A DNA stretch of 64,000 nucleotides from Eledone cirrhosa (taxonomy: Eukaryota), in NCBI GenBank assembly GCA_964016885.1, contig OZ024744.1:118358001-118422000 (forward strand), given 5' to 3'. Made by a program: the position numbers and the translations under genes. Of the stretch, positions 1,036-64,000 are shown one piece after another. The notes under the pieces are model-generated. The model was given only the letters and a program-made list of their open reading frames with translations, searched no databases and was not told the origin of the DNA. Position 1 is the stretch's first letter. The number at the start of each line of letters is the position of its first letter.

Positions 1036-1770
1036 CAATAGGATCATAGATATCACAGGAACATGTTTTTACACCTGAAACAAACATTGACAAATGTTAT
1101 GAAGTCGCCACACCTGAAAGATTGAAACTACAGGTAACATCATCTAATGAGTATTGGGATTACAACTGGTTGCTTGGCAATGTGGGAATGACATATATAT
1201 TTCACACACTGAGAAGACACTTTGTTTCTGTAAATTAAGGTATATCATAATCTATAAAGCTCAGTGTGTGGTCATGCTCCTTTCTTATAGAAATCTACGA
1301 TATAGAATTTCTTCAATTGAAATTTACAATTCACTATTCGAAATAGTTTCAATTGTGTCTTGGCACATCTCATTTTTTCAATTCCACCCACAATTACGCA
1401 AAAAATAGATAAAACTCAATATTTTACGATTTTTCTCTGTCATTTAAACTGCTAAACTCTTTCCACTACCATTCAAAATACAACTTCATACTTTCTGCTA
1501 CTTTCTCTTTCCAAGCTTGATGGTGATACTGTCTGTTTTACTCTCTCATATCATCTGCTTACCTATATCTATAACCCACACATTTTGCTACTTTCTCTTT
1601 TATACTTCAAATTATTACATTTCATACGAAACGACAATTATTCAAAAGCAACAGATACATTTATTCAACAAGCGATAAATCTTTTTTAAAACCTCTTTTC
1701 CAAACACATACAAACACACTCACTTCAACAACAACAACAATCTGCCTTTTATAGATAATGATAAACAATA

Positions 1771-2233
1771 ATATCCTCTATGAGGTCACTAAACCTGCTA
1801 GAAACAGCAGCTAACTCTCCCCCATACCACACCCCTCCCTACTGTCTTAAATTTAGAAAACATATCTTCTATGAGGTCACTAAACCTGCTAGAAACAGCA
1901 GCTAACTCTCCCCCATATCACACCACTCCGTACTGTCTTAAATTTAGAAAACACATATCCTCTATGAGGTTACTAAACCTGCTAGAAACAGCAGCTAACT
2001 CTCCCCATATCACACCACCCATCCCTACTGTCTTAAATTTAGAAAACATATCTTCTATGAGGTCACTAAACCTGCTAGAAACAACAGCTAACTCTCCTCC
2101 ATATCACACCACTCCCTACTGTCTTAAATTTAGAAAACACATATCCTCTATGAGGTCACTAAACCTGCTAGAAACAACAGCTAACTCTCCCTCATATCAC
2201 AACCCTCCCAACTGTCTTAAATTTAGAAAACAC
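1771..2233 (+). repeat. ~93-bp minisatellite, 5 copies (atatcctctatgaggtcactaaacctgctagaaacagcagctaactctcccc...tactgtcttaaatttagaaaac)
   Basis: The atgaggt anchor falls at 1780, 1871, 1964, 2057 and 2150 (periods 91, 93, 93, 93). Confidence 0.95.
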
Positions 2234-2239
2234 ACAGAC

Positions 2240-2521
2240 AACCATGCAGAACAATGCCATCGCAGCTCTGTTGTTCGGCTGGCATCGTCTACGCGCGTGT
2301 TGTGCAAGTACTGTGAAACAATAAATTTCAACACTTTTTTGCACAGAGATAATATCCATAGGCGAAACTACAATTGTCACTGCTGGCGCAGCTCCTGCTT
2401 CTAGGTCTGCAATTCATTCACCCAGTGCCTGGCAGACAAAAAAGTGCTGCCATAAAATGGGTGGTGCAACCTAACTTTGGTAACTTAATGACCCCGAGCA
2501 ACGCCAGGCTTTAATGCTAGT
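2240..2521 (-). mobile_element. Possible non-autonomous Helentron/HINE-like element terminus
   Basis: The reverse complement of 2493-2521 reads ACTAGCattaaagCCTGGCGTTGCTCGGG, matching the ACTAGC...CCCGGC.TTGC.CGGG terminal hairpin pattern of HINE/DINE-1-like elements. The other boundary is uncertain. Confidence 0.4.
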
Positions 2522-2714
2522 TTCTTTATAAGGCTGATATTAATGTAAACTGTTCCACATAACCAACTCTTTGCTGGTGTGTGTATGTCAGTGCATGCGT
2601 GACTGTATGAGTATGTCAGTGTATACATGTCTGTGTGTGTATGTGTATGTCAGTGTATACGTGGCTGTATGTCTATGTGTGTGTTATGCTGCAAATTTCA
2701 AACCTAGAGCATAC

Positions 2715-3352
2715 ACTAATAGATAAGTTGAAATTTATTTTACATGACTGACTAACATACTGAGGTCATATATTGTACTTGTGACTAACATACTGAGGTC
2801 ATATATTGTACTTGTGACTAACATACTGAGGTCATATATTGTACTTGTGACTAACATACTGAGGTCAGATATTGTACTAGTGACTAACATACTGAGGTCA
2901 GATATTGTACTAGTGACTAACATACTGAGGTCATATATTGTACTTGTGACTAACATACTGAGGTCATATATTGTACTTGTGACTAACATACTGAGGTCAT
3001 ATATTGTACTTGTGACTAACATACTGAGGTCAGATATTGTACTTGTGACTAACATACTAAGGTCAGATATTGTACTTGTGACTAACATACTGAGGTCATA
3101 TATTGTACTTGTGACTAACATACTGAGGTCAGATATTGTACTTGTGACTAACATACTGAGGTCAGATATTGTACTTGTGTGTTACAGATAATACTGATTG
3201 AACTCACAGTCCCATGGGAAGAAGAGTGCAGCAACACCTTTGAACAAAAGAGTGCCAAGAACTTATGTAGGAATATAGGGAGAAAGGTTGACTGGCATGG
3301 TGGACTGCCGGTGATATCTGGCTCACTCACTGGAATGACAGGAAGAGAGAAG
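2715..3352 (+). pseudogene. Decayed restriction-like endonuclease (RLE) domain of a Hero/NeSL/R2-group non-LTR retrotransposon
   Basis: Across frameshifts it reads DKLKF..[VTNILRSDIVL]x13..QIILIELTVPWEEECSNTFEQKSAK...EYREKG*LAW...GMTGREK. This matches the RLE signature LRPDIVL...(L/I)ELTVPWE...ERKxxKY. ELTVPWEE is at 3200-3223. Confidence 0.8.
2749..3179 (+). repeat. 33-bp minisatellite, 13 copies (tgactaacatactgaggtca[g/t]atattgtacttg)
   Basis: Direct reading; it gives 11-aa repeat ORFs on both strands (2781-3191 +, 2735-3154 -). Confidence 0.97.
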
Positions 3353-3488
3353 AATGCAGATTGCTAGATACATATACATATACACATACATAAACATATA
3401 CATACATATGCACATATTTAAATATACACGTATATACACATACACATATTTAAATACACATACACACACATTTCTCTTGCAAATCTAC

Positions 3489-4174
3489 AAAATTTGTCAT
3501 TGTGGTGCTATCAAGTACCTGCGGAAAAAGGGTTTAACAAGGTCATTTCATCTGCAGGGAAGGTGATGACTTAGTTTTGGGGATGCAAAAGGCATTGCAT
3601 TTATATTCATGCTGACATGATTTCTACAAAAGATGCTCCAGCTTTAGCAACAATGTAAAAGGAGGTAGTTGTATAGAGGGAGTGTTGAAGATGACCAAAG
3701 GTCTGGATGTCCTGCAACTGTCACCATTGAGGAAAACATTGACCGTGATTCTTCAAATAGCCAATGTTATTAGCAACCCATGCTAGCGTGGAAAAATGGA
3801 CATTAAATGATGATGATGATGATGATATCCAATGGAGAGAGTTGAGACTATTCTGCACAATGAACTTGGCAGGATGAAGGTTTCTGCTCAGTGGGTGCCA
3901 TGTCTTCTGACACCTGAACAAAAGTGAACAAGGCTGATCACATCACAAGAAAATCTGACATTGTTTGAGGCAGATCCAGCTGGTTTCCTTGAACGTTTCC
4001 TAACCCAGGATGAGTGTTGGATTCATCACTTTGAGCCAGAGACAAAGAGACAATCCATTATGCTCAAAAGAAGACCAAGGTCATTTCATCTGCAGGGAAG
4101 GTGATGACTCAGTTTTGGGGATGCAAAAGGCATTGCATTTATTGCCTATCTTAAAAAGGGTCACACCATCAATT
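3489..4174 (+). pseudogene. Dead mariner (Tc1/mariner) transposase, N-terminal HTH region to first part of the catalytic domain
   Basis: It reads KICHCGAIKYLRKKGL..IHADM..DAPALATM..EDDQRSGCPATVTIEENIDR, then ILHNELGRMKVSAQWVPCLLTPEQK*TRL...FLERFLTQDECWIHHFEPETKRQS..KKTKVISSAGKVM..DAKGIAFIAYLKKGHTIN. The WVPxxL motif is at 3892 and the TGDExW-equivalent at 4003. Stops and frameshifts are present. Confidence 0.9.
3775..3826 (+). mobile_element. Short SINE/LINE 3' tail with (GAT)n inserted into the mariner relic
   Basis: aacccatgctagcgtggaaaaatggacattaaatgatgatgat; the same tail occurs at 7386-7430 and partly at 6548-6582. Confidence 0.7.
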
Positions 4175-4717
4175 TATTCTATGGTTGAAGGAGGACCATT
4201 TTATGACAAGGAAGACTGGTGCCAAATCTAGTATTTTAATATCTTTCTTAACTCAAATGTTCACCTCTCATCTATTGTATTATCTTTGACCATAAATCAA
4301 ACTGCTAGCCCTAAATGAATTCTATGTCCAGCTTCTTTTCACGTCAACAGACAGTTCCGTTTCCTAAAATAGTCCTCTTTGAACTATAGAATAAATTCCT
4401 CTCAACCAATGACATTTCTTACTCAGGCAGTACCAGGAATACTTGAAGCCCATTGGCTACTGATCACTTCACTCCCCCACTCCTTCCCATTCTATACAAA
4501 TATACCTAAAGAAAATGTGTAAATTTCATTAATCTCTGATCAATTGTTGAATACAAACATAGTGCAAGTGAGTAAATAGAAAAAATATTCCTATATAACT
4601 CTCAAAGGTCGTTATGTAATTGCTAATGAAATGTGTTAGATTATTTAATCAAACAAATCTTTCTTCAAATTTCTCCTCACTTTTTGCCTGTTTTTCTAAT
4701 TCAATATATTATTCTAA

Positions 4718-5621
4718 ACTAGCTGAATGACCCAGCATTGCCCGGGTTACTGCTGTTCTTATCCATATTAGTAAACAATAAATATGAAAATATATATTTT
4801 TTTCTCATAATTATTTCAAAATATCTACATTCTATAAAAAAATATCAAAATTGTAATGATATAGAATTTAAAAATGAAAATCTATCCATCTTGAAGCACC
4901 TCAGTGTAAACAATATTCATTGTGTAATTTTTTGTTGGTGTCCAAATGAATAAATTGTTTCTACTTCCAACTCATGAGCAACCAACATAGAGTTGACCGT
5001 GGGAGAAACATGTAGTAGAGAGATCGAGTCCAACTACTTTGAGGGATTGACCCTGAGATTTGTTAATTGAAATAAAACTTAGTTTGACTGGAAATGGAAC
5101 ATCTGTAGGTATGAGGGGAATTTTTAGAATAAAGACATTTTTTTTTTAATATTGTAAACAAATAAGTATCAACATCCAAAAGAAATATATATTAATTATT
5201 ATTTTTGTATTCAGTGTAAATTAACCAAATATAAGCAAATGTATTAACAGCTAATTTAACGGTATGAGAATATAAATATAAACAAACCGGCACACATACA
5301 CTAACACAAACATACACTTATAAACAACACACAGACATACATTCATACAAACACAGTTTCACCCCACCAGCATTTGTTATGTCAGTTGTCACAGAAATGT
5401 ATGTATACTCAAATACACTCAGATACATATACTTGTCAGTCATCACATGTAGATGTGTGTGTGTTTAATTCTTTGTGTGTGCATGTATGTTATTAAGGCT
5501 TAACGTACATAACGCACACGTAAACACACACACACAAACACAAACACACTCATGTACAAAATGTGATGTCGTCATCGTGATGTTATAAAATGTCAGTTTA
5601 ATATAGTTGACTATAGTAGAT
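4718..5621 (+). mobile_element. Probable non-autonomous Helentron/HINE-like element
   Basis: Starts ACTAGCtgaatgACCCAGCATTGCCCGGG (terminal hairpin pattern), contains CA-rich simple repeats, and ends with a short palindrome atagt-tg-actat followed by AGTAGAT. Family assignment is from recall. Confidence 0.45.
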
Positions 5622-5832
5622 TATTTTAGATAAAATGTTATATAGTTTTAATCCAAATGAAAATAAAAATTACATGCTGTTAATCGTGGGGTCTAATACT
5701 ATTACCTTGTAAAATTTGATTTGTTAAGTCATTTAAGAATACATAAGGAAAAGACAGACAGAGAAAGAATTTTATATAGAGAGAGATTACTCCATGAATT
5801 ATTGGAACCTTGTAGCATACTCAAGGAATTAA

Positions 5833-6320
5833 CATACATATATATAGATGTATATATATACATATATATAGAAGTATATATATACATATATATAGAAGTA
5901 TATATATACATATATATAGAAGTATATATATACATATATATAGATGTATATATATACATATATATAGATGTATATATATACATATATATAGATGTATATA
6001 TATACATATATATAGATGTATATATATACATATATATAGATGTATATATATATATAGATGTATATATATATATAGATGTATATATATATATAGATGTATA
6101 TATATACATATATATAGATGTATATATATACATATATATAGATGTATATATATACATATATATAGATGTATATATATACATATATATAGATGTATATATA
6201 TACATATATATAGATGTATATATATACATATATATAGATGTATATATATACATATATATATATATGTATATATATACATATATATATAGATGTATATATA
6301 TACATGTATATACATACACA
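5833..6320. repeat. AT-rich 24-bp minisatellite (gatgtatatatatacatatatata) with a few 18-bp variants
   Basis: Direct reading; the YIYIDV-type ORFs in several frames are by-products. Confidence 0.95.
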
Positions 6321-6354
6321 TCTATGCCCCACCCCATCCTCCTGCATGTAGGTG

Positions 6355-6582
6355 TCATGACAAAAAGCACCCAGTCCACACTGTAAAGTGGTCGTGTAAG
6401 CATCACAACAAAAAGCACCCAGTACTCACTGTAAATGAGGTTGATGTTAGGAAGGACATCCAGCTGTAGAAACCAAGCCACAATCAGTTCTGTATGAGTA
6501 AGACATGGTCACCTGACCTAGCATTACCGACAACAGGACAACTCGTCTGGAAAATGGACATAAAACGGTGATGATGACGATT
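6355..6582 (+). mobile_element. SINE-like interspersed repeat with (GAT)n tail
   Basis: aaaagcacccagt..cactgtaaa (present twice, at 6363 and 6411), ttaggaaggacatccagctgtagaaacc, and tail ggaaaatggacataaaacggtgatgatgac. Homologous to 7077-7432. Confidence 0.7.
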
Positions 6583-6596
6583 ATATATATATATAT

Positions 6597-6775
6597 ATCA
6601 TCATAGATTAACGTCTATCTTCCACACTAGCATGGTTTAAACAGGTTTCTCCCATTTAGAGGCAACTTGGGTTGGGTGACCATGTCTTGCTCATATAGGG
6701 GTGTTTCTAGCTGGTTTTATATGGCTGGATGCCATTCCTAACGCCAACCACATTGACAGTGTGTGCTTACATGAC
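6597..6775 (-). mobile_element. Same SINE-like family, inverted copy
   Basis: The reverse complement reads gtggttggcgttaggaatggcatccagcc...catgctagtgtggaagatagacgttaatctatgatgat. Confidence 0.7.
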
Positions 6776-7869: not shown

Positions 7870-10740
7870 GCAAAGGTAAAATAAGGAACCATCAAAGAGG
7901 AAGGAAGTAACAAGTGAACAAATGTTGAAACAAAGAAGATTAGAATTAAGAGAAACAGAGACCTTGGAAAAAAGAGAGCCCAAATACTCTGTAAATTTTT
8001 CAAGAAAAGTGATCTGCTGACATGGAAAAGCAGAGGCAGGTTGCAGATTTGCTCATACCAGACCTCATGTGAGTTGCACACAACCAGTACATCCCAAATA
8101 CTCAAGCTAAAACTACCATGGACAGACAACACAGCAGATAGGGTCACTGCCCAGGAAATATGATGTTACACGTACTGCCCCGATGAAAAGAAGATATGTA
8201 GAAGCAGTACAGACAGTAGCTGCAGAGCAACAATCGTTTTTAGACATGGCAGAAAAGATAGTACAACAATTGATTTGGCTACATCAGATACAAAGTGATT
8301 CACACCAACATTCATGACCACTACAAAGAAACGCAGAGTGACCACCACCACTGACACTGAAATATGTTAGCAGCAGCCACTGCTAACAGCTCAAATATCA
8401 CACCAGTGCTACTGCTAAATGTGAGTGGCTAGGTAAAAGTTAGCAGCATGAGTACAATCTCCACAAGCATTCAAGCAATATGCATGTCACTAACTGAGAA
8501 GTAAGATGCAGAGGCAGAAATACACATAATGAAGTATGCTGTATTTCATCCTGACAGAAGAGAAAGAACTCTTTGTATGTCCATGAATATGTCACACCAT
8601 TAGTACTGTCACATTCCAACTCAGGCTGTGATACACTAATAGTACACATAAAGCAACTCAAAATGGTAATATGTCACATATCGATCACCAGACGCCTCTA
8701 GTTGTGAGGAAAAGTTTGAAGATGACCTCAGAAAGATTGAAGAAGTACTAACCAAACTGGATCAGAGTCTCAACATACTGCTGCTGGGAGATTTTAACTC
8801 CAAAAGGTCAAATGAGCTGAAGACCAGTGCCTCTCAGGAATGACAATACTTAAACCTTACAAAACGACTTTTCATGGAACAAAGGGCACTTCATCCAAGA
8901 GATGAGAAGACCTGAATCTCTGCTTCATAAATAACACGGGGCTCACCCACAATGTAAATATGAAACCAATGATTTTCTCGGAACATAGCATAGTAGAACT
9001 AGGAAGGTATAGTCTGAGGAAGACTGTAGATATACTACCGACAGGAAACACTTGGTCTATCAAACAAAACCTTCCACAGAACTAACTAGAAAAGGATTCA
9101 GGAAGAGCTCCCGAAGCAAAACTGGACAAACAGTTTCTCTATGGAAGATGTCCACATTAAACTTGAACAATTCATGGAAATAATATAAACTATATGCTCC
9201 AAGTTTACCCCAGAAAGAAAGGCCAACAGATACAAGAATAATATTCCCAAAGATAGAAAAATGCTTACGTGATAGAGAACAAAGATCTCAAACTGTCTAC
9301 ATATACAAGGAACAAGAAGGAATCCCATTTGAAGCAGGCACTGTTTGAAATTGCCAGTGAAATGAAACTTTCCCATGAAAAAGTTAGGACAGAAAGGAAA
9401 GCCAGAACTAAAGAAAACATAGAAATGAACCTAAGGTCTTCTTTAAATTTGCAAAAGGGACTGCCTCAGTACATTACAGGATGGGGCTAGTTTCCCATAA
9501 AAATGGCTCACTAACTGCAGACCCCTAAGGGATAAGTGAAGTACTGAATGGGCAATATAAAAGTGTTTCCACACCCCTAATGAGATACATACAAATAAGT
9601 AAACCAATTGAGTTCTTTAACACCACAGCACAACACAGAGAAACGGGAAATATCAACCACATAGATATAAAGGTGAAAGGTGCAATATCAGCCATAGACG
9701 AAATGAGACCAAATTCAGCAGCTGGCAGTGATGGTTTCCCAGCAAACTTCTTAAAATCATACAAATGAACATTAGCAAAACTACTGCAGATCATCTTCCA
9801 AAGTTCCTTTTCATGGGGTACAGTACTCAGAAAACTAAAAGATGGCATATGTCCTAAACATAAAAAAGGAAGTGGAACAGATGCTAAAAACTACCAACCT
9901 GTCTCCTTAACATATCAGCAAAGAAGAAATCTGATCACATACCTAAAGGAAATATAACCAACTAACTGACACCCAGCTTGACTTTTGTCTGGGTAGAGCT
10001 GCCTTACATAGTATTATGACTGGGTACTGAAACAATTGCTAAACTGTTCAAACATGGATGTAATATATTTCGACTTTGCAAAAGCCTTTGACAAGAATTG
10101 GTCATGGAATATGCTACAAACTTCGGAGTTTCAGCATAGCTGGAAAACTAGGTGAAAGGATTCATGATTTCTTAAAAGACAGAAGCCTGTTGCAGCCAGC
10201 AGGGTCCTCACAAAAGAAAGATCAATAACAATTAGTGTGCATCAGGGAACAGTCTTCTGTTTGTGGTGGGTCTCTGACATACCCTCCATAATATAGACAG
10301 TCTCCCTCACTTGATGATGAGCAGAAAGTAGCACAATCAAGAATCTGGTTGGTGCAACCCTCTTACAGGATTTTCATGCCATATACAAATGGACAATGCC
10401 AGAAAATCTCTATCAACCTGTAAACAAGGCCAATGCAACAAAACTACACCATACCAGGAGGTATAGAAATCAATAGAGGACCTGGGTTTTGACATGAGCA
10501 ATGATACATCACCAAACTGTGCAGATGATTGGCATGTTTCATTTTGAAGACTTTCAAGACAAGAAAGCAAGAGACCATGTTAGTTAACTGGACTATTGTC
10601 CTCAGCAGTGTTAAACTAACTGCAGAAATTTGTGTAAGCTACTCCAAGGAGATTGCCTCAATGAAGGAGATGAGATACTGAGAGAGGCTGACAGAAGCTC
10701 TACTGTCTGGAATGTGAGAGATATATACAGTGATATAGAT
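7870..10740 (+). pseudogene. Decayed CR1-group (CR1/L2-like) LINE: ORF1 Cys/His remnant, APE endonuclease and reverse transcriptase
   Basis: Motifs occur in the correct order across many frameshifts: LCKFFKK..HGKAEAGCRFAHT (~7988-8058), SNSGCDTLIVHIKQL..YRSPD (~8615-8695), NILLLGDFN (8772-8798), FSEHSIV (~8975), MRPNSAAGSDGFPANFLK (9703), KKGSGTDAKNYQPVSLT (~9861-9912), DVIYFDFAKAFDK (10058-10096), VHQGTV (~10236), DLGFDMSND (~10478), KTFKTRK (~10547), KEIASMKEMRY*ERLTE (10646-10696). Confidence 0.88.
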
Positions 10741-13700
10741 AAGGAGATGAGGTACTGAGAGAGGCTGACAGAAGCTCTACTGTCTGGAATGGGAGAGATA
10801 TATACAGTGATATAGATAAGGAGATGAGGTACTGAGAGAGGCTGACAGAAGCTCTACTGTCTGGAATGGGAGAGATATATACAGTGATATAGATAAGGAG
10901 ATGAGGTACTGAGAGAGGCTGACAGCAGCTCTACTGTCTGGAATGGGAGAGATATATACAGTGATATAGATAAGGAGATGAGGTACTGAGAGAGGCTGAC
11001 AGAAGCTCTACTGTCTGGAATGGGAGAGATATATACAGTGATATAGATAAGGAGATGAGGTACTGAGAAAGGTTGACAGAAGCTCTACTGTCTGGAATGG
11101 GAGAGATATATACAGTGATATAGATAAGGAGATGGGGTACTGAGAGAGGCTGACAGAAGCTCTACTGTCTGGAATGGGAGAGATATATACAGTGATATAG
11201 ATAAGGAGATGAGGTACTGAGAGAGGCTGACAGAAGTTCTACTGTCTGGAATGGGAGAGATATATACAGTGATATAGATAAGGAGATGAGGTACTGAGAG
11301 AGGCTGACAGAAGCCCTACTGTCTGGAATGGGAGAGATATATACAGTGATATAGATAAGTAGATGAGGTACTGAGAGAGGCTGACAGAAGCCCTACTGTC
11401 TGGAATGGGAGAGATATATACAGTGATATAGATAAGGAGATGAGGTACTGAGAGAGGCTGACAGAAGTGCTACTGACTGGAATGGGAGAGATATATACAG
11501 TGATATAGATAAGGAGATGAGGTACTGAGAGAGATTGACAGAAGCTCTACTGTCTGGAATGGGAGAGATATATACAGTGATATAGATAAGGAGATGAGGT
11601 ACTGAGCGAGGTTGACAGAAGTGCTACTGTCTGGAATGGGAGTGATATATACAGTGATATAGGTAAGGAGATGAGGTACTGAGAGAGGCTGACAGAAGCT
11701 CTACTGTCTGGAATGGGAGAGATATATACAGTGAAATAGATAAGGAGATGAGGTACTGAGAGAGGCTGACAGAAGTTCTACTATCTGGAATGGGAGAGAT
11801 ATATACAGTGATATAGATAAGGAGATGAGGTACTGAGAGAGGCTGACAGTAGCTCTACTGTCTGGAATGGGAGAGATATATACAGTGATATAGATAAGGA
11901 GATGAGGTACTGAGAGAGGCTGACAGAAGTTCTACTGTCTGGAATGGGAGAGATATATACAGTGATATAGATAAGATGAGGTACTGAGAGAAGCTGACAG
12001 AAGCTCTACAGTCTGGAATGGGAGAGATATATACAGTGATATAGATAAGGAGATGAAGTACTGAGAGAGGCTGACAGAAGCTCTACTGTCTGGAATGGGA
12101 GAGATATATACAGTGATATAGATAAGGAGATGAGGTACTGAGAAAGGTTGACAGAAGCTCTACTGTCTGGAATGGGAGAGATATATACAGTGATATAGAT
12201 AAGGAGATGGGGTACTGAGAGAGGCTGACAGAAGCTCTACTGTCTGGAATGGGAGAGATATATACAGTGATATAGATAAGGAGATGAGGTACTGAGAGAG
12301 GCTGACAGAAGTTCTACTGTCTGGAATGGGAGAGATATATACAGTGATATAGATAAGGAGATGAGGTACTGAGAGAGGCTGACAGAAGCCCTACTGTCTG
12401 GAATGGGAGAGATATATACAGTGATATAGATAAGTAGATGAGGTACTGAGAGAGGCTGACAGAAGCCCTACTGTCTGGAATGGGAGAGATATATACAGTG
12501 ATATAGATAAGGAGATGAGGTACTGAGAGAGGCTGACAGAAGTGCTACTGACTGGAATGGGAGAGATATATACAGTGATATAGATAAGGAGATGAGGTAC
12601 TGAGAGAGATTGACAGAAGCTCTACTGTCTGGAATGGGAGAGATATATACAGTGATATAGATAAGGAGATGAGGTACTGAGCGAGGTTGACAGAAGTGCT
12701 ACTGTCTGGAATGGGAGTGATATATACAGTGATATAGGTAAGGAGATGAGGTACTGAGAGAGGCTGACAGAAGCTCTACTGTCTGGAATGGGAGAGATAT
12801 ATACAGTGAAATAGATAAGGAGATGAGGTACTGAGAGAGGCTGACAGAAGTTCTACTATCTGGAATGGGAGAGATATATACAGTGATATAGATAAGGAGA
12901 TGAGGTACTGAGAGAGGCTGACAGTAGCTCTACTGTCTGGAATGGGAGAGATATATACAGTGATATAGATAAGGAGATGAGGTACTGAGAGAGGCTGACA
13001 GAAGTTCTACTGTCTGGAATGGGAGAGATATATACAGTGATATAGATAAGATGAGGTACTGAGAGAAGCTGACAGAAGCTCTACAGTCTGGAATGGGAGA
13101 GATATATACAGTGATATAGATAAGGAGATGAAGTACTGAGAGAGGCTGACAGAAGCTCTACTGTCTGGAATGGGAGAGATATATACAGTGATATAGATAA
13201 GGAGATGAGGTACTGAGAAAGGTTGACAGAAGCTCTACTGTCTGGAATGGGAGAGATATATACAGTGATATAGATAAGGAGATGAGGTACTGAGAGAGGC
13301 TGACAGAAGCTCTACTGTCTGGAATGGGAGAGATATATACAGTGATATAGATAAGGAGGTGAGGTACTGAGAGAGGCTGACAGAAGTGCTACTCTCTGGA
13401 ATGGGAGAGATATATACAGTGATATAGATAAGGAGATGAGGTACTGAGAGAGGTTGACAGAAGCTCTACTGTCTGGAATGGGAGAGATATATACAGTGAT
13501 ATAGATAAGGAGATGAGGTACTGAGAGAGGCTGACAGAAGTTCTACTGTCTGGAATGGGAGAGATATATACAGTGATATAGATAAGGAGATGAGGTACTG
13601 AGAGAGGCTGACAGAAGTTCTACTGTCTGGAATGGGAGAGATATATACAGTGATATAGATAAGATGAGGTACTGAGAGAAGCTGACAGAAGCTCTACTGT

Positions 13701-58700: not shown

Positions 58701-60126
58701 GACAGAAGTTCTACTGTCTGGAATGGGAGAGATATATACAGTGATAGAGATAAGGAGATGAGGTACTGAGAGAGGCTGACAGAAGTTCTACTGTCTGGAA
58801 TGGGAGAGATATATACAGTGATATAGATAAGGAGATGAGGGACTGAGAGAGGCTGACAGAAGCTCTACTGTCTGGAATGGGAGAGATATATACAGTGATA
58901 TAGATAAGTAGATGAGGTACTGAGAGAGGCTGACAGAAGTGCTACTGACTGGAATGGGAGAGATATATACAGTGATATAGATAAGGAGATGAGGTACTGA
59001 GAGAAGCTGACAGAAGCTCTACTGTCTGGAATTGGAGAGATATATACAGTGATATAGATAAGGAGATGAGGTACTGAGAGAGGCTGACAGAAGCTCTACT
59101 GTCTGGAATGGGAGAGATATATACAGTGATATAGATAAGGAGATGAGGTACTGAGAGAGGCTGACAGAAGCTCTACTGTCTGGAATGGGAGAGAGATATA
59201 CAGTGATAGAGATAAGGAGATGAGGTACTGAGAGAAGCTGACAGAAGCTCTACTGTCTGGAATGGGAGAGATATATACAGTGATATAGATAAGGAGATGG
59301 GGTACTGAGAGAGGCTGACAGAAGCTCTACTGTCTGGAATGGGAGAGATATATACAGTGATATAGATAAGGAGATGAGGTACTGAGAGAGGCTGACAGAA
59401 GCTCTACTGTCTGGAATGGGAGAGATATATACAGTGATATAGATAAGTAGATGAGGTACTGAGAAAGGCTGACAGAAGCTCTTCTGTCTGGAATGGGAGA
59501 GATATATACAGTGATATAGATAAGGAGATGGGGTACTGAGAGAGGCTGACAGAAGCTCTACTGTCTGGAATGGGAGAGATATATACAGTGATATAGATAA
59601 GGAGATGGGGTACTGAGAGAGGCTGACAGAAGCTCTACTGTCTGGAATGGGAGAGATATATACAGTGATATAGATAAGATGAGGTACTGAGAGAAGCTGA
59701 CAGAAGCTCTACTGTCTGGAATGGGAGAGATATATACAGTGATATAGATAAGGAGATGAGGTACTGAGAGAGGTTGACAGAAGCCCTACTGTCTGGAATG
59801 GGAGAGATATATACAGTGATATAGATAAGGAGATGAGGTACTGAGAGAGGCTGACAGAAGCACTACTGTCTGGAATGGGAGAGATATATACAGTGATATA
59901 GATAAGGAGATGAGGTACTGAGAGAGGCTGACAGAAGCTCTACTGTCTGGAATGGGAGAGATATATACAGTGATATAGATAAGGAGATGAGGTACTGAGA
60001 GAGGTTGACAGAAGCTCTACTGTCTGGAATGGGAGAGATATATACAGTGATATAGATAAGGAGATGAGGTACTGAGAGAGGCTGACAGAAGTTCAACTCC
60101 TTAATGGGAGAGATTTATACAGTGAT
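10664..60126 (+). repeat. Satellite/macro-VNTR array of a 77-bp monomer, about 640 head-to-tail copies; consensus aaggagatgaggtactgagagaggctgacagaagctctactgtctggaatgggagagatatatacagtgatatagat
   Basis: Period is 77 (10664 to 10741 and onward). No inversions or foreign insertions were seen by eye. Most copies differ from consensus by 0-3 changes, with occasional 2-3 bp deletions. Consensus composition A27 G25 C8 T17, no CpG. Confidence 0.99.
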
Positions 60127-60345
60127 TGATATACATGAGGAAGATACTAGGACTAACACCAAACTTTGCCATTGAGAGCTGGACCAATCTTCAAACAGGA
60201 CACCACAGTATAGTGCCAAAAGTCCCCAGCTCTTTAATAAGCTAGGGGATCTACATGATGTGCATGTAGATATTTCCAAGAAACATCTCAACATTCTAGA
60301 ACGCATGGCATGAGACGAAGTATAAACAGCGACAGTCTCTCTTAC
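60098..60345 (+). pseudogene. Continuation (3' end of ORF2) of the same CR1-group LINE
   Basis: It reads IYMRKILGLTPNFAIESWTNLQTGHHSIVPK..PQLFNKLGDLHDVHVDISKKHLNI. This is the type of sequence that follows 'YWERL..L.LYSLERRRERY.IIY.WKI' in such ORF2 C-termini (..GP.LFN.LP..FK..LD). Confidence 0.7.
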
Positions 60346-60483
60346 ATAAAGTGCCAACTGTAGAAAAATGGCAGTGCTCCAGCAAGCCCTTAGTCAGTTG
60401 GCTGGAACACGCAAACGAGATACATCAATCCTTCCCTCTCTCCCTCCATGCGTCTGACTCTCGAGAGAGATACACTCAAATAT

Positions 60484-60655
60484 ATAGAGAGAGACAATCA
60501 GACAGATAGATACAATACAAATGTAGAGAGAGAGATATATAGATATATAGATACGATACACCAATGCACAGATAGATAGATACACCAATACACAGACAGA
60601 TAGATAGATATATAGATACAATACACCAATACACAGATAGACATATAGACAGATA
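60484..60655. repeat. Compound (GATA)n/caccaatacaca microsatellite, left part
   Basis: gatagatacaccaatacacagacagatag units, the same as at 63587-64000. Confidence 0.9.
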
Positions 60656-62447
60656 TGTTTCTTTATTAGCCACAGGGGCTCAAAAGAAGGGGACAAATAC
60701 AAAGGGCGAAGTTTACATACAATAAAAACGTGTAAAATGCTGTCAGAAATGCAATTTAAAAAACAATCGATTTTCCCCAATAGGGGGAGACAGTTCATAT
60801 GGGTAACACATACCCCCAAAAAAATGTGCAACCCTCATCTCCAGGAGTACGAAGAGTTTGTACTCCTTTCCTCTCTTCCTCTTTTTCCTCAACCTGCAGG
60901 CTGATATAGAGAGAAGGCCCATTCACTCGGGCCATTCTCGCCACCTTCACCCACCTTTCATAAAACTTGCTGGGGTACAGCACCTCTCTCTCCATCCTGA
61001 TTCTTCTTCCAAAATTGTATTTGAAAAAAAGAACCAGTTGGCCGGAGAGAAAGGTGTCTGACCTCAGCCCTTTCAACCTTGTCCACCATACAACCTCTTT
61101 CGCCATAGCTATCACACAAAGGAAAACCGCCTCTCCTTCGTTTTTGAAGGAGAGTGGCAGTTTGATCATGACCATGGACTCGGTGGTCAACCGGATTGGT
61201 CCCACCCGCGACAATAGTCGTTCTACATAACCCCACAGGTCGGTAACGCCCGGGCAGCGTACGAATGCGGGTGCGACAGTTTCTTCGTCTCGCACAGATC
61301 TTTTTCGAAGGGTCCCTGCCCAGGCACCCGTGTCTGTAGAGCTTGTCTCGAACTGGTAGAGCTCCTCGGTAGCACTGCCAGGCCAGGGACTTTTGGAAGT
61401 TTTCCATCGGTCCCGAGCAGAAGGTCCTACCGAACAGACTGGCCAGTTGCTCTTCCTCTACGCCTAGTTTCTCCGAGCGCATCGTCGCACTTGTTGCGGA
61501 CCAACCCCCTATAGAATGACAAAGTGGAGTCTCCACTGATCGCCAGGTCCGCCTGCCAGAGGGCTGTGAGCGCCTGAGCATATTCGATGTGCCAGTCGCC
61601 CATTTTCCTCGGTCTTTGCTTGACCCAGGACTGCAGCTCGGTCAGCGAGACGAGTCGTGGGAATGCTCGCCTCACGAATGGGGCCCACACCGGTTGTCCA
61701 GTGAGGAACACGTGGAGCTGCCACAGCCTGAGCGCGTGTTTGTGCATCGTCAGCCACGGCATCCCCAGCCCTCCGTTTGAAGGGTGTTGGCAGCAGATGG
61801 ATCTTCTCACCAAAAGAGCCAGCTTCTTCCAAAGGAATTGGAAGAGCGTGCGCTCCATTTTGGTGAGCGTTTTGGCTGGACAAGGCACGACGGTCAAGCG
61901 GTAGTAGATGACGGACGCTATAAAAGTATTCGCCACCTCCGCTCAACCTTTCAAGGATAGTTTGCACTCGGCCCACTTCTGGGTGAGCGCAAACACCTTG
62001 GCCGTCACCTCCTTCCAGTTCTTTTCCACCTGGAGGTCCGGACCAAACCAGACCCCAAGCAGCTTTACCGGTCCTTCCGTCCAGCATGAGACCATGCCAT
62101 CGGAAGGCATCGGTTTACCTCTCCACGCTCTGAGTTGCAAACCGACGGATTTGTCCCGGTTGAGCTTCGCTCCTGTGAACCTTTCCTATTCCTTCAGTAA
62201 AGTGCCGACCTCCCCGATTTGCGAGGTGCTCGACACCATTACTGTCACGTCGTTGGCATAGGGCGACGCCACTTTTCGCAGTCCTGGTTCCAAAGGGATG
62301 CTCTGAAATAGCTCCAAACTCCGCAGTAGTGGCTCGAGAGTCAGTACGTACAGAAGGGAGGAGAGAGGGCATCCCTGTTGGATGGATCGCGTGATATGGA
62401 ACGGCTCCAAGAGATAGCCGTTCACCTTGACCCGATGTTGCTGCTGA
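60654..62447 (-). mobile_element. Tx1-like (L1-group) non-LTR retrotransposon copy A, 5'-truncated within RT, frameshifted
   Basis: Minus-strand peptides: RVKVNGYLLEPF..IQQGCPLSSLLYVLTLEPLL..PYANDVTV (YADD mutated, 62249-62260), PVKLLGVWFG, NTFIASVIYYRL, LVRRSICCQHPSNGGLGMP, zf-RVT-like LAWQCYRGALPVRDKLYRHG..EETVAPAFVRCP, ending ERWVKVARMARVNGPSL. The 3' UTR ends AATAAAGAAACATATCT. Confidence 0.9.
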
Positions 62448-62452
62448 TCGAT

Positions 62453-62716
62453 AGATATATTTCTATTTATTGCCACGAGGGCGCAAAAGAAGGGGGCAAA
62501 TACAAGGGGAGGGGGGAGGGAGTTTACACAAAAAGGTGAGTAAAGAAAACAAATAAATATAAAACAAATAAATATAAAATTAACAATAGAGTCCTCAATA
62601 GGGAGAAGGCGTTTTGGGGGGTCGCACACACACACCCGAAAAAAGGCTGATGTAGAGAGAAGGCCCATTCACACGGGCCATTCTCGCCACTTTCACCCAC
62701 CTTTCATAAAAACGAC
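62453..62716 (-). mobile_element. Tx1-like copy B, 3' end only (diverged subfamily)
   Basis: tttctatttattgccacgagggcgcaaaagaaggggcaaatacaa and gagaaggcccattcacacgggccattctcgccactttcacccacctttcataaaa are homologous to copy A's 3' UTR and ORF end. Confidence 0.85.
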
Positions 62717-62732
62717 TGATAGACAGATAGAT

Positions 62733-63192
62733 AGATATGTTTCTTTATTAGTCACAGGGGCACAAAAGAAGGGGACAAATACAAAGGGGGAAGTTTACAT
62801 ACAATAAAAATGTGTAAAATGCTATCCCAAATGTAATTTAAAAATTAATCGATTTTCCCCAATAGGGGGAGACATTTCATATGGATAACACATACCCCCG
62901 AAAAAAATGTGCAACCCTCATCTCCAGGAGTACGAAGAGTTTGTACTCCTTTCCTCTCTTCCTCCTCAACCTACAGGCTGATATAGAGAGAAGGCCTATT
63001 CACTCGGGCCATTCTCGCCACATTCACCCACCTTTCATAAAACTTGCTGGGGTACACCTCTCTCTCCATCCTGATTCTTCTTCCAAAGTGGTATTTGAAA
63101 AAAAAGAATCAGTTGTTGGCCGGAGAGAAAGGTGTCTGACCTCAGCCCTTTCAACCTTGTCCACCATACAACCTCTTTCGTTCGCCATAGCT
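62733..63192 (-). mobile_element. Tx1-like copy C, 3' ~460 bp, close relative of copy A
   Basis: Aligns closely by eye with 60651-61110 (e.g. caaccctcatctccaggagtacgaagagtttgtactcctttcctctcttcc). Confidence 0.92.
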
Positions 63193-63196
63193 AGCT

Positions 63197-63206
63197 AAAT
63201 AGATAA

Positions 63207-63248
<42 letters not shown>
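63197..63248. repeat. (GATA)n microsatellite between copies C and D
   Basis: Direct reading. Confidence 0.95.
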
Positions 63249-63249
<1 letters not shown>

Positions 63250-63587
63250 TATTTCTTTATTGGCCACAAGGGCGCACAAGAAAAGGGGACAATACAAAGA
63301 CATGCCGGGGATTTTACATACAGTCGTGTAAAAAAATTATAAAACAAACAATTATAACAATCGAAATCCCCAATAGGGAGGAGACGCCACAAATGGGTTG
63401 TTTAATACCCCGTCGATAGAACAACCCTCAACTTCAGGAGCGTGTTGTGCAAGTGCTCCCTTCTTCCTTTTGCTCTCTTCTTTAACCTACAGGCTTATAA
63501 ACAGAGAAGGCCCAATCACTTGGGCCATTTTCGCTTCATTCACCCCACCTTTCAGTAAATTTACTGGGGGTGCAGTGCCTCTCTCGG
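63245..63587 (-). mobile_element. Tx1-like copy D, 3' end only (most diverged)
   Basis: tttctttattggccacaagggcgcacaagaaaaggggacaatac, ccccaataggg and gagaaggcccaatcacttgggccattttcgc are homologous to copies A-C. Peptide GVNEAKMAQVIGPSLFISL versus WVKVARMARVNGPSLYISL in copy A. Confidence 0.85.
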
Positions 63588-64000
63588 ATAGATAGATAGA
63601 TACACCGATACACAGACAGACAGATAGATAGATACACCAATACACAGACAGATAGATAGATACAATACACCAATAGATAGATAGATAGATACACCAATAC
63701 ACAGACAGATAGATAGATACAATACACCAATAGATAGATAGATAGATACAATACACCAATAGATAGATAGATAGATACAATACACCAATACACAGACAGA
63801 TAGATAGATACACCAATACACAGACAGATAGATAGATACAATACACCAATAGATAGATAGATACACCAATACACAGACAGATAGATAGATACAATACACC
63901 AATAGATAGATAGATACACCAATACACAGACAGATAGATAGGTAGATAGATACACCAATACACAGACAGATAGATAGATAGATACAATACACCAATACAC
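63587..64000. repeat. Compound (GATA)n/caatacaccaatacacagaca microsatellite, right part, running off the window
   Basis: Direct reading. Confidence 0.95.

Follow-up and report, generated by a model that had tools for sequence, protein, structure and literature searches.

Four truncated copies of Tx1-like retrotransposons lie head to tail inside a compound GATA microsatellite of the octopod Eledone cirrhosa. The stack and its array occupy the last 3.5 kb of the stretch of DNA analyzed here (the window: 64 kb, positions 118,358,001 to 118,422,000 of contig OZ024744.1, assembly GCA_964016885.1), and the array runs past the window end on the right. All four copies, termed A to D, are on the minus strand and combine an intact 3' end with a variable 5' truncation (4/4), the anatomy of a target-primed retrotransposition product. 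All eight junctions of the stack adjoin TATC units, in one orientation and at one 3' phase. The stack makes a good candidate for a known kind of element with a new microsatellite target. The explanation moderately favored here is target-primed insertion with a preference for (TATC)n, repeated at a site that each insertion regenerates by its own target duplication.

Anatomy, subfamilies, and classification of the stacked copies

The copies were delimited by self-BLAST and alignment over the 64-kb window, and self-BLAST reveals no fifth copy there. Their number, strand, and sizes agree with an initial annotation of this DNA, as does the distinct 5' end of each copy (4/4). Copy A extends from 60657 to a 5' edge that is uncertain within 62443-62449, and is 1.79 kb long. 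It consists of the C-terminal half of open reading frame (ORF) 2, equivalent to amino acids 401-912 of its best protein match, P0002, and a 3' untranslated region (UTR) of about 240 nt. The ORF2 part includes reverse transcriptase (RT) motifs, the thumb, and the C-terminal zinc region, and is 60-73% identical to P0002 in three frames. Copy A is dead: it has two in-frame stops and at least two frameshifts, has lost the ORF2 stop, and is without both the endonuclease and ORF1. Copy B (62459-62717; 259 bp) retains 68 nt of the ORF2 end and the 3' UTR, with a gap of about 70 nt across the ORF2 stop codon. Copy C (62739-63193; 455 bp) is truncated about 230 nt inside ORF2 and has, at its 5' junction, a 4-nt repeat of its own first bases. 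Copy D (63251-63586; 336 bp) consists of the ORF2 end and the 3' UTR. At positions 62643-62644 of copy B, a 96%-conserved ORF2 end is fused straight to a UTR of 66% identity, without the stop codon; either a deletion or a switch of template between the RNAs of different subfamilies may have produced this junction.

The end pattern AATAAA-N0-2-GAAAYATATCT matches four times across the 64 kb, each time on the minus strand, and never in 100 shuffles. As first described, each copy ends in AATAAA followed by GAAA(C/T)ATATCT (4/4), with the correction that copy B has two additional bases between AATAAA and GAAA; a poly(A) tail is found in 0/4 window copies. A small 3'-terminal hairpin (60662..60682, minus strand, in copy A) has a stem of 3-4 bp and a 5-nt loop and is followed by AATAAA. 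The same motif ends copies B, C (with one pair broken), and D, and also the elements of the sister lineage described below. Across both lineages, 47 of 52 cells are paired and two pairs are invariant, while one pair is swapped on both sides between the lineages, which amounts to a single evolutionary event. Folding of the window copies lends their 3' hairpin little thermodynamic support (z -0.3 to -1.9). In the sister lineage, another 3'-terminal hairpin follows the small one and precedes AATAAA (L012:7408-7446 and equivalents); its sequence varies, and single folds preserve the pairing (z -2.4 to -3.2 in 3/4 loci folded). It is not recovered by RNAalifold, and the window copies are without it.

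Homology to copy A is 92.0% over 488 columns for copy C, 71.6% over 409 columns for copy D (E 2.5e-44), and 95.6% across the 68-nt ORF2 end for copy B (E 2.5e-25). Comparison of ungapped columns, with the ORF end and the UTR taken apart, divides the stack further. Copies A and C match at 196/209 positions of the ORF end and 221/234 of the UTR (94%). Copies A and B match at 65/68 and 111/167 positions, so that the UTR of B is 66% identical to that of A/C, and copies A and D match at 78/96 (81%) and 151/226 (67%). The UTRs of B and D match at 106/163 positions, and the 3' UTRs of both are 65-67% identical to those of all other copies. By these identities, the stack contains three subfamilies, namely A/C, B, and D. 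The three coding differences between A and B are all synonymous, which, small as the numbers are, suggests that copy B derives from a separately active lineage; A and C differ by nine non-synonymous and four synonymous changes. At least three separate insertion events are thus securely indicated by the sequence comparison, and the original proposal of independent insertions, with A and C close and B and D more diverged, stands. Tandem duplication of the whole stack is ruled out by the 65-67% UTR identities and the four truncation points. An origin of copy C by DNA-level duplication or conversion of the 3' end and flank of copy A, which would leave three insertions, is improbable, too. The 94% identity of A and C, a 21-nt flank of C that matches that of A at 19/21 positions (a comparable divergence), and the 9:4 ratio of coding differences, as under neutral decay, are consistent with such an origin. 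However, neutral differences are equally expected from two insertions of one master, and copy C does not lie next to the 3' end of A, since B and 1.3 kb of A intervene. A separate 5' junction marks copy C, moreover, and the short repeat there would be typical of aborted reverse transcription.

The element belongs to the L1 group of non-long-terminal-repeat retrotransposons by both RT placement and ORF2 architecture. Copy A matches RVT_1 in Pfam (E 2.4e-8) and has a broken C-terminus; among named proteins, those of Argonauta hians (57-59% across the RT segment) and Octopus bimaculoides (52%) come closest. The two nearest long relatives, P0373 and P0369, carry an N-terminal APE endonuclease, RT, and zf-RVT; the closest full-length relatives, Argonauta GAB1606090.1 and P0369, have this architecture. 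The profile of the lineage scores 379 bits on LINE-1 ORF2p versus 130 on R2. An RT tree of 50 rows (IQ-TREE quick search, SH-aLRT support, all rows kept) places copy A together with both Argonauta proteins in a clade of five rows (99), whose sister group (100) is the array-forming clade of the sister lineage; the surrounding rows are of the animal L1 group (98). Copy A also lies inside an ingroup (100) with plant and fish L1-type rows. Its clade is apart from fish and frog rows, which we take to be vertebrate-type L1; the outgroup rows, labeled from their domains and hosts, are presumably of CR1/jockey type. A FastTree of 96 rows, filtered from 214 segments at 70% identity, recovers the same two clades.

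The Tx1-like label comes from architecture and from the annotation of Octopus vulgaris, not from a phylogeny with named Tx1 families; it is supported, not proved. The initial Tx1-like assignment, here to a Tx1-type long interspersed nuclear element (LINE) of the L1 group, is backed by the RT tree, the profile scores, and the architecture of the relatives. No named Tx1 sequence (Tx1L, Keno, Kibi, Koshi, Dewa) is among the protein-search or cluster look-up matches. In the passages of PMC13282606 on recently active LINEs of Octopus vulgaris, L1-Tx1 is the sole L1-group class. ORF1 of the Tx1 clade has an RRM/CCHC-knuckle architecture (a section of PMC5203782), and ORF1 of the sister lineage has one CCHC knuckle in 4/4 loci checked, as does that of a more distant element, L049; Pfam zf-CCHC reaches E 9.8e-5 for L026 and stays below the cut-off for the others. 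Mammalian-type L1 elements are defined by a 3' poly(A), which is found at 0/4 window copies and 0/70 sister ends. For the RTE, CR1, and L2 groups the defining features are their RT clade and a repeat tail on the 3' side only; the RT here is of the L1 group, and the array lies on both sides.

The GATA array as a probable landing site

The flanks outside the stack belong to one compound array of TATC, TGTC, TGTG, and TATTGGTG units. The left compound GATA array (60484..60656; no strand assigned) lies 3' of copy A. It has 68% of its bases in perfect units and is the older, degenerate part, with a single TATC between the 3' end of copy A and the first TGTC variant. The right compound GATA/CACCAATA/CACAGACA array (63587..64000) lies upstream of the 5' end of copy D. 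Its units are near-perfect (97%, versus 68% in the left array); it has probably been homogenized recently and is likely to have expanded after the insertions. An 18-nt compound unit has three copies to the left of the stack and eight to its right and is otherwise absent from the window, an exact 43-nt string is common to both flanks, and the order of the array units continues as usual from one flank to the other across the stack. The same compound array is thus present on both flanks, as had been noted at the outset. About 16 runs of at least three TATC can be counted in the present-day array, and no GATA run of at least three units occurs in the first 60.4 kb of the window.

Three short spacers separate the copies. 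The spacer between B and A (62450..62458) is 9 nt long and has two TATC units on the element strand; beside it, a further 6-7 nt are assigned to neither array nor copy. The spacer between C and B (62718..62738) has 21 nt of TATC units including one TGTC, and the spacer between D and C (63194..63250) has 57 nt, with about 10 pure TATC units followed by TATT/TAGC variants. The CACCAATA unit is in none of the three spacers, and no compound unit lies between copies. The description of the copies as separated by GATA repeats only needs a small correction, in that the spacers are imperfect.

The arrangement bears on whether the repeat is a target or a tail of the element. Copy A is followed by one TATC before a TGTC variant, and copy B by two TATC; a long element-encoded TATC tail is ruled out for A and B by this early appearance of non-tail sequence. 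A repeat tail alone would also leave the 5' flank of the stack unexplained. Most likely, the array predates the insertions and served as their landing site, because copy A is followed by a single TATC ahead of variant units and no TATC tail exists in the sister lineage. The sister data also remove poly(A) and a repeat tail as ancestral traits, and this likewise favors a target. The suggestion that the element carries a TCTA tail of its own consequently fails as a long tail for A and B and survives as a short annealing ATATC end. The 21-nt C-B spacer, which matches the 3' flank of copy A at 19/21 positions where pure repeat alone would match at 18/21, is a weak candidate for a target-site duplication around the B+A block. 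An RNA-gene target near the stack was rejected, as an Rfam search of 60100-64000 gives four sub-threshold microRNA-like matches only.

In the favored mechanism, three to four separate events of target-primed reverse transcription by related families of the L1 group (Tx1-type) would account for the stack. The ORF2 protein would bind a structured, poly(A)-less RNA 3' end consisting of the small hairpin and AATAAA, the role of the hairpin being putative. The APE endonuclease, with a presumed preference for TATC repeats, would make a fixed-phase nick in the GATA strand. Reverse transcription would begin at the exact 3' end of the element and abort at variable 5' points. A staggered second nick might then duplicate a few repeat units, the length being conjectural, and so regenerate the site. 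Later subfamilies could re-use this regenerated site, landing head to tail on earlier copies.

Arrays of the sister lineage and competing explanations

A scan of genome contigs yields 53 loci with 27-45% identity to P0002, 51 of them from the bacterial metagenome-assembled genome (MAG) record CAXXMW01. In this GTDB 'Arenicella' MAG, at least 16 contigs are largely eukaryotic head-to-tail retrotransposon arrays with a period of about 6.4-6.9 kb (L001-L047, L050-L053). The loci evidently represent eukaryotic contamination of a reference genome, and the arrays are possibly a transposon-derived satellite of the eukaryotic host. They consist of full-length ORF1+ORF2 elements of a clade sister to that of copy A (42-45% to P0002). 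Sixteen contigs provide 56 distinct 3' ends; another same-strand copy follows 55 of these, and the last is at a locus edge. The sample is biased: it comes from one assembly and mis-binned contigs, its loci were fetched by ORF2 matches, and it contains no 3' boundary of an array. An A8+ tail after AATAAA is present at 0/70 ends (counted with overlaps). There is no GATA/TATC run in 448 kb of these arrays, no RNA-gene spacer by Rfam in 7/8 loci (the eighth is the distant L049), and no transfer RNA gene by ARAGORN in 14 loci. The short sequence after AATAAA is common within an array and different between arrays. Neighbors of different subfamilies stand at one site on two contigs, where their ORF1 regions are 67% and 76% identical, while neighbors on another contig are 96.6% identical, as expected after unequal exchange. 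The next copy is 5'-truncated in 3/56 cases, two of them identically. In one family (L001:3523, L002:3716), TATCT directly follows AATAAA, at 2/56 ends and without a following repeat; this may be a chance likeness to the window junctions.

Head-to-tail re-insertion at the same site is thus habitual in the lineage and independent of a microsatellite, and it would give one orientation and one phase without any TATC preference. The initial claim that several subfamilies share a (TATC)n target is, on these grounds, not established by one locus. Several findings weigh against the favored explanation. The evidence is a single locus, at which the four copies (4/4) are non-independent, and the endonuclease of the window subfamilies is absent from the window. 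The sister lineage stacks at 55/56 ends without a microsatellite and with spacers that differ between arrays. A clear 16-nt duplication of the upstream flank around the first copy, in itself in favor of the explanation, is seen at 1/4 sister array starts only, the other three being ambiguous, and the 21-nt duplication candidate of the window depends on one diagnostic base. All four copies also occupy one spot, for which the chance is 0.0002-0.004 with 16 available sites and 0.02-0.11 with four. This concentration indicates re-use of a site more than free choice among repeats; since the right array has probably grown after the insertions, the smaller number of sites may be more realistic. The four stack junctions are one observation, and not independent evidence for a microsatellite target.

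It is possible, though considerably less probable, that the first copy landed in the GATA array by chance or weak preference and that later copies were drawn to the end of the resident element, either by the element junction or by annealing of read-through RNA. The link with GATA would then reflect one event. The near-universal succession of sister copies, their array-specific spacers, the mixed subfamilies and truncated neighbors at single sites, and the absence of compound units between the window copies all fit this account. However, many sister arrays look amplified by unequal exchange, and the bias of the sample bears on all of them. The octopod branch differs in the loop region of its endonuclease, with 16 residues against 18-19 in most sister rows (16 in one), and the lack of GATA runs in the rest of the window means that a chance first landing is not cheap. 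A broader scheme, which is doubtful, would combine both elements: an undescribed invertebrate L1/Tx1 branch with poly(A)-less, hairpin-ended RNAs would form self-homing, head-to-tail stacks of mixed subfamilies regardless of the flank, to which an octopod sub-branch added a (TATC)n preference.

An unlikely explanation assigns the RNA itself a terminal ATATC or short (TATC)n, able to anneal to the nicked GATA strand or arising by slippage, so that each spacer would be tail in part or in whole. The A before the first TATC lies outside pure repeat and is present at 4/4 ends, the D-C spacer is a long near-pure run, and TATCT follows AATAAA in the one sister family mentioned above; for RTE elements, a portion of PMC6007223 describes repeat tails that steer the choice of site. 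Yet a tail would explain neither the compound array 5' of copy D nor the 43-nt identity across the stack, copy A has a single TATC, and the sister lineage is without a repeat tail. A short annealing end would, moreover, complement a target preference rather than replace it. Passive accumulation, in which random insertions survive in a repeat-rich, low-recombination region, has been proposed for Waldo-A/B near CA repeats (a passage of PMC3812793). The locus does lie beside a 49-kb satellite, but the single orientation, single 3' phase, spacers of 9-57 nt, and lack of nesting, together with the absence of copies elsewhere in the 64 kb, make it very improbable here; the precision of the junctions largely refutes it.

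Related systems, significance, and further observations

Preferential (TATC)n insertion would place the window element near several known systems. Kibi inserts in (TC)n and Koshi in (TTC)n, both as microsatellite targets of the Tx1 clade, and eight crocodilian Tx1 families insert in (TTCC)n or (TTTC)n (sections of PMC4494074 and PMC3812793). In the relevant part of PMC4494074, a family counts as repeat-specific when >20% of its genomic copies are flanked by the repeat, and a portion of PMC6007223 confines site-specific APE elements to the Tx1 and R1 clades. Like these families, the window element is, to judge by its relatives, an APE-type member of the L1 group in a short microsatellite with a TC-containing unit, and the repeat lies on both sides of the insertions. 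In contrast to the units TC, TTC, TTCC, or TTTC, its unit is TATC, with an internal A; the array is compound, the host is an octopod and not a vertebrate, and one locus is represented. By analogy, the stack appears to work like the Kibi, Koshi, and crocodilian families, without being assigned to them.

Stacking itself also has parallels. Tandem SINEU-3/Tx1-Mar insertions sandwich a duplication (a passage of PMC4494074), and double-insertion tandems at regenerated sites are described for R1, jockey, and DMRT1B in Drosophila (in part of 10.1101/158386). These share with the window stack the head-to-tail order, intact 3' ends, distinct 5' truncations, and short target-derived spacers; the window stack differs in its three diverged subfamilies and in its site, which is a microsatellite and not a transposon or ribosomal DNA. 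Octopus vulgaris has 80 L1-Tx1 families in 56.3 Mb, 13 of them recently active, and these have their superfamily label and probably their host group in common with the window copies; the passages and supplement of PMC13282606 that were searched hold no target information on them. Microsatellite-tailed RTE elements (sections of PMC6007223), including those of octopus (in part of PMC9115989), resemble the window copies in having a repeat at the 3' junction and no poly(A). Unlike them, the window copies belong to another RT group, and their array flanks both sides, whereas the RTE repeat is a tail. SART1 and Waldo/Mino (R1 clade), Dong, and Togen likewise insert in short repeats at a fixed phase, but they are of other clades and use the units TTAGG, ACAY, AC, TAA, and TG; SART1 requires a poly(A) tail (PMC7265360).

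The open-access literature searched contains neither a GATA/TATC target nor a cephalopod target analysis, although Repbase may already list a GATA/TATC-targeting family. Should the target hold genome-wide, it would extend microsatellite-specific Tx1-type elements from vertebrates to cephalopods and add GATA to their repeats. GATA repeats would then be safe landing sites that are interrupted and reshaped by the elements, and a poly(A)-independent, repeat-directed APE retrotransposon would offer a further natural model of target choice as governed by endonuclease loops. If an octopod (TATC)n sub-branch exists, its endonuclease and that of the sister lineage would form a pair, one repeat-directed and one not, for mapping the change in specificity. 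All of these prospects carry the caution that copies stacked at one locus count once and not four times.

Most of the window is a 77-bp satellite (10664-60126; about 644 copies, 96% matches) with strong G skew. Exact 400-mers recur within it at 11,983 and 3,153 bp, reflecting either higher-order duplications or an assembly duplication. The satellite seemingly interrupts a decayed plus-strand LINE remnant (about 8700-10660 and 60127-60350). Positions 9424-9909 of this remnant match an RT protein (BLASTX, E 5.7e-6), a Pfam search of it gives no match, and the part after the satellite is presumably a CR1-type C-terminus. The GATA array starts about 130 bp beyond the remnant and might have begun as its tail. 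Minisatellites with periods of 56, 93, 33, and 24 bp lie at 756-1023, 1771-2234, 2749-3179, and 5834-6312, respectively. A partly duplicated stretch at about 3540-4170 is, by eye, presumably a mariner transposase fragment.

Two relatives show unusual arrangements. L049:1369-8500 (CBDHHR010000099.1) is a distant L1-group element (27% to P0002) with ORF1 at 1692-3254 and ORF2 at 3263-6751. An intact U1 small nuclear RNA gene lies just upstream. At its 3' end (AATAAA and a short run of A), the element abuts the 3'-terminal three quarters of U1 together with the same downstream flank, 159 nt being exactly duplicated. This single locus is a candidate U1-inserting retrotransposon with a very long duplication; for insertion in U1, a passage of PMC4640811 (2015) names the DNA transposon Dada-U1 only. 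In P0396 of the fish Siphateles boraxobius (1686 aa), ORF2 is followed by ORF1-type ZCCHC3/CCHC domains in one annotated protein, as if the gene model extended over two Tx1-type elements in tandem.

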